DNA from: Escherichia phage PhiR70_1
Strand: one strand, 5' to 3'
Sequence record: PV340577
Length of the DNA stretch: 48,757 bases
Part shown: positions 46,350-46,413 of the stretch, in pieces
Layout: each line of letters begins with the position of its first letter
Numbering within the stretch: the stretch's first letter is position 1
Made by a program: the position numbers and the translations under genes
The notes under the pieces: generated by a model
Database searches by the model: none
Seen by the model: only the letters and a program-made list of their open reading frames with translations
What the model was told of the DNA's origin: nothing

Positions 46350-46413
46350 ATCGGTCTCGAAAACCGGAGTAGGGGCAACTCTACCGGGGGTTCAAATCCC
46401 CCTCTCTCCGCCA
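46350..46413 (+). tRNA. Partial tRNA-Ser(CGA) gene, 3' portion only (att-site relic)
   Basis: ATCGGTCTCGAAAACCGGAGTAGGGGCAACTCTACCGGGGGTTCAAATCCCCCTCTCTCCGCCA matches the anticodon arm through the acceptor 3' end of E. coli serU as recalled; the 5' 25-30 nt are absent. Confidence 0.7.

Follow-up and report, generated by a model that had tools for sequence, protein, structure and literature searches.

Three chromosome-derived attachment sequences have been described in the prophages of STEC and EPEC: attB-in-PP_1, attB-in-PP_2 and attB-in-PP_3. Their chromosomal sources are yecE, ykgJ/ecpE and ompW, and their identity to the chromosome is 81-87% (Nakamura et al. 2021, PLoS Pathog, PMC8112680). 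Such attB-in-prophage sequences spread among prophages and permit the integration of one prophage into another (PMC8112680). Neither serU nor any tRNA-derived site is mentioned in that study (PMC8112680). At serU itself, a hot spot of prophage and island insertion has been documented (PMC8767318, PMC7545054).

Here we analyse a stretch of 48,757 nucleotides from Escherichia phage PhiR70_1 (sequence record PV340577), which we call the window. We consider it highly probable that positions 46352-46413 are the core of a fossil attR of a serU-integrating phage, that this attR took 278 bp of host DNA with it, that it was joined illegitimately only once and then spread among lambdoid phages, and that it can serve as an ectopic site of the serU type. 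The argument draws on the following features.

1 to about 74, minus strand: lambda P' arm, starting at base 1.
75-1145, minus strand: lambda-type Int gene (356 aa), not of the serU type; the window has no other integrase.
45363-46351, plus strand: right end (P arm side) of a serU-type lambdoid prophage, including a 3' remnant of a tail-fibre-assembly gene (45363-45485) and a conserved 195-bp arm next to the core (46157-46351).
46352-46413, plus strand: 62-bp att identity block, the 3' part of serU; the crossover interval (anticodon stem-loop) lies at 46353-46369, as mapped by the junction markers of strain 2013C-3264.
46414-46691, plus strand: captured bacterial chromosome (278 bp) from the serU-to-yodB intergenic region, the B' side of attR; co-linear with the DNA downstream of serU in K-12, ECL27829, PCP07014 and SerU-LTIIb.
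46692-46747, plus strand: right-end remnant (56 bp) of an IS630-family element; it shares 98.2% identity with the end of a copy in CFT073 and has the inverted-repeat terminus and TA/CTAG target at 46745-46749.
46998-47741, plus strand: gene of an AraC-family regulator (YdeO/GadX-like), probably PatE (z0321); the best NCBIfam matches are YdeO and GadX, both below the cut-off.
47783-48148, minus strand: C-terminal fragment of IS2 TnpB (NCBIfam).
48293-48514, plus strand: N-terminal fragment of an IS3-family orfA (NCBIfam).
48529-48753, plus strand: resident lambda-type P arm and core (attR), reading as a lambda P arm, with the core aCTTTTTTATACTAA at 48739-48753.

The core of the fossil, CGGTCTCGAAAACCGGAGTAGGGGCAACTCTACCGGGGGTTCAAATCCCCCTCTCTCCGCCA, occupies 62 nt on the plus strand (46352-46413) and is identical at all 62 positions to the 3' part of the K-12 serU gene, tRNA-Ser(CGA). 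Its first base is the second base of the anticodon stem and its last base is the CCA end. A first-pass annotation, made from the letters of the window, had reported about 64 nt at 46350-46413, running from the anticodon arm to the CCA-proximal end of tRNA-Ser(CGA) without the 5' part. Alignment to tRNA-Ser, the check it proposed, bears out the identity of the fragment and the missing 5' part; the extent has to be corrected to 62 nt, as the left bound was set two bases too far.

The similarity to the bacterial chromosome does not end with the tRNA sequence. In a three-way alignment and by local BLAST, positions 46352-46691 match the K-12 chromosome over 340 bp with 97.06% identity and no gaps. 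A chance match is thus excluded, because the co-linear identity extends beyond serU by 278 bp of the serU-yodB intergenic region. The DNA left of the 62-nt block has no match in K-12. Instead, it matches the phage side of the right junctions of serU prophages, SerU-LTIIb (KU052038) among them. Positions 45363-46691 match the right end of the serU prophage in ECL27829 as one contiguous piece of 1,329 bp (98.1% identity), after which that genome runs into yodB, zinT and msrQP. Positions 46157-46691 match the attR of the serU prophage in PCP07014 with 98.9% identity. The 195-bp arm that adjoins the core occurs in 1,026 of 5,426 E. coli genomes.

The PCP07014 prophage shows what the complete arrangement looks like. 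It begins after mtfA with an intact tRNA-Ser, followed by int, the phage genes through J and stf, the arm, the orphan 62 nt and the host flank. The direct repeat of its attL and attR is exactly the 62 bp found at 46352-46413, with no extension on either side. After the block, the attL of PCP07014 continues with phage DNA (aaattcaatcactt...), and its attR continues with chromosomal DNA (ctttatcaatgactt...), as does the window. Hence the block in the window, which has the bacterial flank on its right and not the int-side arm, is an attR (P arm, core, B' flank) and not an attP. We found no partner attL in the window: the 5' part of serU, a full tRNA and a serU-type int are all absent from it. The sequence is therefore a relic and not the working attR of the resident prophage.

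These comparisons with serU-integrated prophages settle the origin of the fragment largely as first proposed. It had been read as an attachment-site duplication from an element that integrates into a tRNA gene, and it is the same sequence as the repeat shared by attL and attR in the PCP07014 prophage at serU. The suggestion that the fragment and its neighbourhood come from a different integrative element agrees with the match of 45363-46351 to the right end of the serU prophage in ECL27829 and of 46157-46351 to that in PCP07014. It needs refinement on one side: the DNA on the left is a foreign element, but the 278 bp on the right are bacterial chromosome that was taken up along with the junction.

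Left of the relic, the side tail fibre region (42820-45485) encodes a protein of 830 aa that has an S74-type intramolecular chaperone domain at its end and does not require a tail-fibre-assembly protein (tfa). Nonetheless, the 3' remnant of a tfa gene follows (45363-45485); it also gives a partial match to Rfam IS009 (77 bits, below threshold). The combination of an S74-type fibre with a leftover tfa remnant is the scar of a tail-fibre module swap. Phage mEp332 matches the window from 45350 on, but carries a different stf/tfa pair. The adjoining segment, 45486-46156, is AT-rich, contains few ORFs and has two terminator-like hairpins on the minus strand (45609-45585 and 45802-45784). The serU prophage of PCP07014 carries a diguanylate cyclase moron (minus strand) in the corresponding place. 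Judged by its composition and position, 45486-46156 looks like an emptied cargo slot.

On the host side, the captured DNA ends abruptly. At 46691|46692 the chromosome-derived sequence ...GGGGTCAATA abuts CCCGGAGGCAAACATGG..., which belongs to the interior of an IS630-family element. By inspection of the sequence, the joint lies 56 bp inside the IS and shows no microhomology. Towards the AraC gene, in contrast, the remnant ends in an ordinary transposition junction (46745-46749, inverted repeat, TA within CTAG). A normal IS end on the AraC side and an internal break on the host side imply an earlier insertion of the IS upstream of the AraC gene, and mark the joint between host and IS DNA as the product of illegitimate recombination. 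As in lambda bio phages, captured host DNA that is contiguous with the att junction thus ends at a novel joint without homology. Every copy that we found begins at the same internal position of the IS. The expected progenitor of the joint, with an intact IS630-family element in front of the AraC gene, was found in none of 5,426 genomes with a chimeric query of IS interior and AraC upstream sequence.

The cargo behind the joint is an AraC-family gene that is also present in O157:H7. The two modules are 99.25% identical at the DNA level from 46351 to 48219, where the similarity stops, and the two AraC proteins fall into the same 90% cluster (cluster names say only 'AraC family'). The gene is probably patE (z0321), as judged not by an accession match but by its position in the thrW-adjacent CP-933H/OI-8 remnant and by cluster membership. 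PatE, the product of z0321, activates acid-resistance genes and represses LEE genes (PMC10877973). Between the AraC gene and the resident P arm lies IS debris (47783-48514). Strain 2013C-3264 has this debris too, in front of intS in its argW-type prophage, and the similarity to that prophage stops at 48528. Hence the att/int module has been exchanged right at 48528/48529.

The copies of the fossil that we examined point to one founding event. Over the 340-bp block the window, mEp332 and O157:H7 differ from each other at three to five positions, and the same three copies differ from K-12 at 10-12 positions; their nearest relative is a flank of the PCP07014 type. The fossil flanks of the window, mEp332 and O157:H7 have private variants in common (T at 46565 and A at 46636). 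An invariant joint between host and IS together with a private flank haplotype indicates a single capture.

From there the relic has spread widely. The exact 1.2-kb arrangement occurs at an identity of at least 99% in two free phages (mEp332 and ev099) and in 97 complete E. coli genomes, which excludes an assembly artefact. In total, more than 600 of 5,426 E. coli genomes contain the relic and 645 contain the AraC module. Some AraC modules lack the relic (query matches begin at 104-107). The joint between host flank and IS630 is also present in 29 IMG/VR contigs, where it occurs with two arm families. Prophages that bear the relic have integration modules for lambda attB, thrW and argW.

O157:H7 carries the module in a lambdoid remnant integrated at thrW, whose right end it forms. 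The order of this remnant is tRNA-Thr, an int fragment, cI, cro, cII, rep, tail fibre, pinE, GIY-YIG and the module; from its position we infer that it is CP-933H/OI-8. In O157:H7 FRIK804 the replication genes of the thrW region are fused straight to tail fibre, pinE and GIY-YIG, and an ST64B-like P arm and the relic follow. This CP-933H-like remnant may be an eroded earlier insertion of a prophage into the relic, whose left junction has been deleted.

The left arm of the relic is not the same everywhere. In O157:H7 and in 20 of the 29 viral contigs the arm is unrelated to that of the window, and similarity begins at the first base of the 62-bp core. The O157-type (X-type) arm with its core resembles the att region of Salmonella phage ST64B and its relatives (72% over 150 nt). 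One variant of this arm ends in ...gattggac|CGG and so mimics the ...aacggac|CGG of the tRNA. The ST64B-like similarity and the tRNA-mimicking end suggest that the O157-type arm, too, is a P arm of the serU type; what ties it to serU phages is only the 72% similarity to the ST64B-family attP region. The arm occurs in about 420 genomes at a coverage of at least 80%. In a spread sample of 60 rows none of the copies lies at a genuine serU junction, and all sampled copies with this arm are fossils.

The contig IMGVR_UViG_2537561945_000005 has 1,349 bp inserted between the core and the joint of host flank and IS630, presumably a later IS insertion into the captured flank. At the serU locus itself, some genomes (among them the Nissle and CFT073 lineages) match the serU flank only from the equivalent of window position 46400 onward, which indicates another integrative element (PAI-serU type) with a much shorter 3'-terminal serU core.

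To find copies of the relic into which a phage has integrated, we used an attP-like chimeric query (window arm, core and int-side arm). It has matches in nine genomes, and at two of them (2013C-3264 and 2013C-4991) we inspected the junctions. DEC5B, another of the nine, looks like an ordinary tandem at serU from its coordinates.

A second phage integrated into the relic with duplication of the att sequence was found in one genome, that of 2013C-3264, where both junctions carry markers. The array sits between dsdC/torI and intS/argW/yfdC, which we take to be the normal K-12 neighbours of the KplE1/CPS-53 site. Its left part consists of torI and an outer prophage (through J, lom, stf and tfa), which ends in the window-type arm and core (window 45350-46430, 96.4% identity). 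In the middle follow a P' arm with a serU-type int and the inner prophage through tail fibre, tccP and espJ. The right part begins with a different (Sp14-type) arm, followed by the core, the serU flank, the IS630 remnant, the AraC gene and the IS debris (window 46301-48528, 98.4% identity), and then intS and argW. The espJ-side arm of the inner phage is the ordinary attR arm at the true serU site in O157:H7 and O55:H7. We take the espJ-tccP phage at serU of O157:H7 to be Sp14/CP-933U. Joined to the relic, the espJ-side arm occurs in 2013C-3264 alone (one of 5,426 complete genomes).

The two cores of 2013C-3264 can be told apart and reveal where the exchange took place. The left copy has C1, G19 and C31, and the right copy has A1, A19 and T31. 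G19 and C31 form a compensatory pair in the stem of the variable arm. A core with this pair is found at 100% identity together with P' arm and int under an annotated full-length tRNA-Ser (attL) in many genomes and is hence the version carried by the phage. This pattern places the crossover between positions 2 and 18 of the block, an interval of 17 nt that contains the anticodon stem-loop. The int of the inner prophage is frameshifted in the present annotation; that it was active at the time of insertion is our assumption. Going by these two junctions, the relic can act as an ectopic att site for a serU-type phage. The window's own copy is unoccupied.

Alternatively, the relic could be inert debris, and its occupation in 2013C-3264 could be the outcome of homologous recombination by RecA or Red, or a misassembly, without any part for an integrase. 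A single occupied case was found, the int of the inner prophage is now broken, and lambdoid prophages recombine often. However, the two parents share only the 62-bp block, which is itself interrupted by markers at positions 1, 19 and 31, and the arms at the two junctions are only about 40-60% identical. The exchange falls within 17 nt around the anticodon loop, the expected cut site of this family of integrases and too short for efficient homologous exchange. So short an interval between such dissimilar arms favours an integrase, whose expected signature it would be, over homologous recombination, for which it would be a poor substrate. The outer flanks of the array are in normal chromosomal order, so no inversion is involved, and the reciprocal pattern of markers is hard to obtain by misassembly. 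We therefore regard inert debris as unlikely, although it is the strongest of the competing explanations.

2013C-4991 was rejected as a second integration into the relic. Its tandem array lies at the Rac site (ttcA-uspF). One junction of the array is attP-like, with an arm, core and int of the serU type; the distal one is another natural site, which shares only CGGTCTCGAAAcCCGtAG and adjoins a YkgJ-family fragment. This distal site is probably the attB-in-PP_2 of Nakamura 2021. The case of 2013C-4991 nevertheless supports the position to which the crossover region was mapped. It appears that arms and an anticodon-loop-like overlap are common to related Int/att systems.

The fragment could also have a function as RNA: as a truncated tRNA, as a tRNA-derived small RNA, or as a cis-regulatory leader or terminator of the AraC gene. 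Its anticodon, variable and T arms could still fold, it lies about 585 bp upstream of the AraC gene on the same strand, and the two travel together in more than 600 genomes. Nevertheless, the acceptor 5' strand and the D arm are missing, and 46352-46413 does not form the complete cloverleaf with acceptor stem of a functional tRNA. ARAGORN predicts no tRNA gene in the entire window, and Rfam at its gathering thresholds finds no match there, including no tRNA. The 28-nt 5' part of serU is absent from the window even when three mismatches are allowed, so the re-examination of the 5' side that the first-pass annotation had asked for yields no full-length tRNA.

Two Rfam matches to the block were set aside. 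One is to the T arm of tmRNA and is a by-product of tRNA-like sequence. The other is a sub-threshold match (40.9 bits) of 46359-46410 on the minus strand (reverse complement) to the Plastid-psbI-rps4 3'UTR; it is an artefact, as this family overlaps antisense plastid trnS.

Nor does the neighbourhood support a role for the fragment as RNA. Promoter-like and terminator-like sites in 45300-47100 are not more frequent than expected from shuffled sequence, and the fragment is associated with none of them. The best of the promoter-like sites is at 46935-46964, downstream of the relic. In mEp332 the relic has a G-to-C substitution in the anticodon stem, at the equivalent of window position 46353, which is consistent with an absence of selection on tRNA function. 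Moreover, the AraC modules without relic mean that the gene is independent of it. An RNA function is hence very improbable.

The prophage that houses the relic uses a different attachment system, as the first-pass annotation had noted: its ends are of the lambda type, with the P' arm at base 1, Int on the minus strand (75-1145) and the P arm with its core at 48739-48753. ACN002 has an identical right end that continues into ybhB-bioA, the side of the classical lambda attB (gal-bio). The serU junction is a passenger 2.3 kb inside the resident attR. A tblastn search of the window with the serU-type Int of PCP07014 has the lambda-type ORF as its sole match (21.7% identity). The idea that the 62-bp block is a second functional attP, by which the phage integrates at serU besides lambda attB, can practically be dismissed: the block is the exact identity block of serU phages and has a genuine P arm on its left, but on its right lies bacterial chromosome and not the P' arm (aaattcaatcactt...) of attP or attL, serU-type integrase and excisionase are absent from the window, whose only Int is that of the lambda type, and prophages of the window type are located at gal-bio, with none seen at serU with reciprocal junctions. 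In the window, then, the relic neither acts as a tRNA nor serves the resident Int. In an annotation, the 62-nt piece should appear as an att relic (pseudo-tRNA), and neither as a tRNA gene nor as proof that the resident prophage targets serU.

For the fossil attR, we propose the following origin. A serU phage would integrate by a tyrosine-recombinase crossover in the anticodon loop and bring a new 3' part of the tRNA at attL. The original 3' part of the host (62 bp) would thereby be displaced to attR, between the right arm of the phage and the chromosome. One such attR, consisting of arm, 62-bp core and 278 bp of chromosome, would then have been joined by a single illegitimate recombination into an IS630-family element upstream of a PatE-like AraC moron. 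The resulting block may have been handed among lambdoid phages by recombination, and in the window it occupies the equivalent of the b region in a phage that integrates by lambda Int at the gal-bio attB. With its complete core and P arm, the relic could still be recognised by serU-type integrases as an ectopic att site; this would lead to a prophage within a prophage, of which nature seems to offer at least one case. Two parts of this proposal are inferred: how and in what order the capture took place (aberrant excision or an illegitimate exchange between phage and chromosome), and the competence of the window's copy. The progenitor state was not found among 5,426 genomes, which leaves room for illegitimate routes other than aberrant excision.

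More tentatively, the relic may be a portable, tRNA-derived landing pad that gives serU phages a second address, seeds prophage-in-prophage arrays and moves PatE-like cargo between phages of different integration specificity. We hold this extension to be possible, at somewhat less than even chances. If true, each integration would set a PatE-like regulator of acid resistance beside the right arm of a new phage. It would also explain why an identical block of flank, joint and AraC gene is found behind three P arms (window-type, X/ST64B-like and Sp14-type) that all break at the first base of the core. Finally, a donor P arm next to near-identical host DNA would show directly how attB-in-prophage sequences originate.

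Among the known systems close to the relic is a genuine serU attR, as in SerU-LTIIb (KU052038), PCP07014, ECL27829 and the espJ-tccP prophage of O157:H7. The 62-bp core and the serU-yodB flank are common to both, and the P arms are the same or related. The SerU-LTIIb record labels these 62 nt, which lie between stf and yodB there, as a pseudo-tRNA-Ser. In contrast to a genuine attR, the relic lies 2.3 kb inside a prophage at lambda attB, its flank is cut after 278 bp, and it has neither a partner attL nor a serU-type int.

The relic also resembles specialised-transducing phages, such as those formed by aberrant excision (lambda gal and lambda bio), in that a viable phage has acquired att-adjacent host DNA through a novel, non-homologous joint. 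Unlike these phages, it kept only 278 bp and no host gene, its joint lies in an IS630 remnant beside a moron and not in essential genes, and its block rides in phages of other integration specificities. Aberrant excision is one possible route.

The donor system itself falls into a familiar pattern. Williams is said to have distinguished, in 2002, sublocation classes of integration into tRNA genes, including one with crossover in the anticodon loop. An identity block that begins in the anticodon stem and extends to the 3' end of the tRNA gene, and a mapped exchange that covers the anticodon stem-loop, agree with this class, which describes the donor and not the relic.

The closest relatives of the relic are the attB-in-prophage sequences (PMC8112680). 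Both are chromosome-derived att sequences with flanking homology that lie near cargo in a lambdoid prophage, spread by recombination and let another phage integrate. The relic differs in coming from the tRNA gene serU with 97% identity over 340 bp, in keeping the P arm of an earlier phage (it is an attR and not a bare attB), and in ending at a datable illegitimate joint that is carried by viable free phages (mEp332 and ev099). From its 97% identity the relic is much younger than the three described sequences. It reveals no new mechanism. Its position beside a PatE-like regulator of acid resistance and LEE expression, and its occupation by an espJ-tccP effector phage, link it to the building of virulence-prophage clusters in pathogenic E. 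coli. As an example of how prophages acquire chromosomal att sites it is unusually well preserved, because donor arm, host flank and illegitimate joint can still be read. With chromosomal homology that includes the flanks and an observed integration, the relic belongs to the attB-in-prophage class, as a new, tRNA-derived member.
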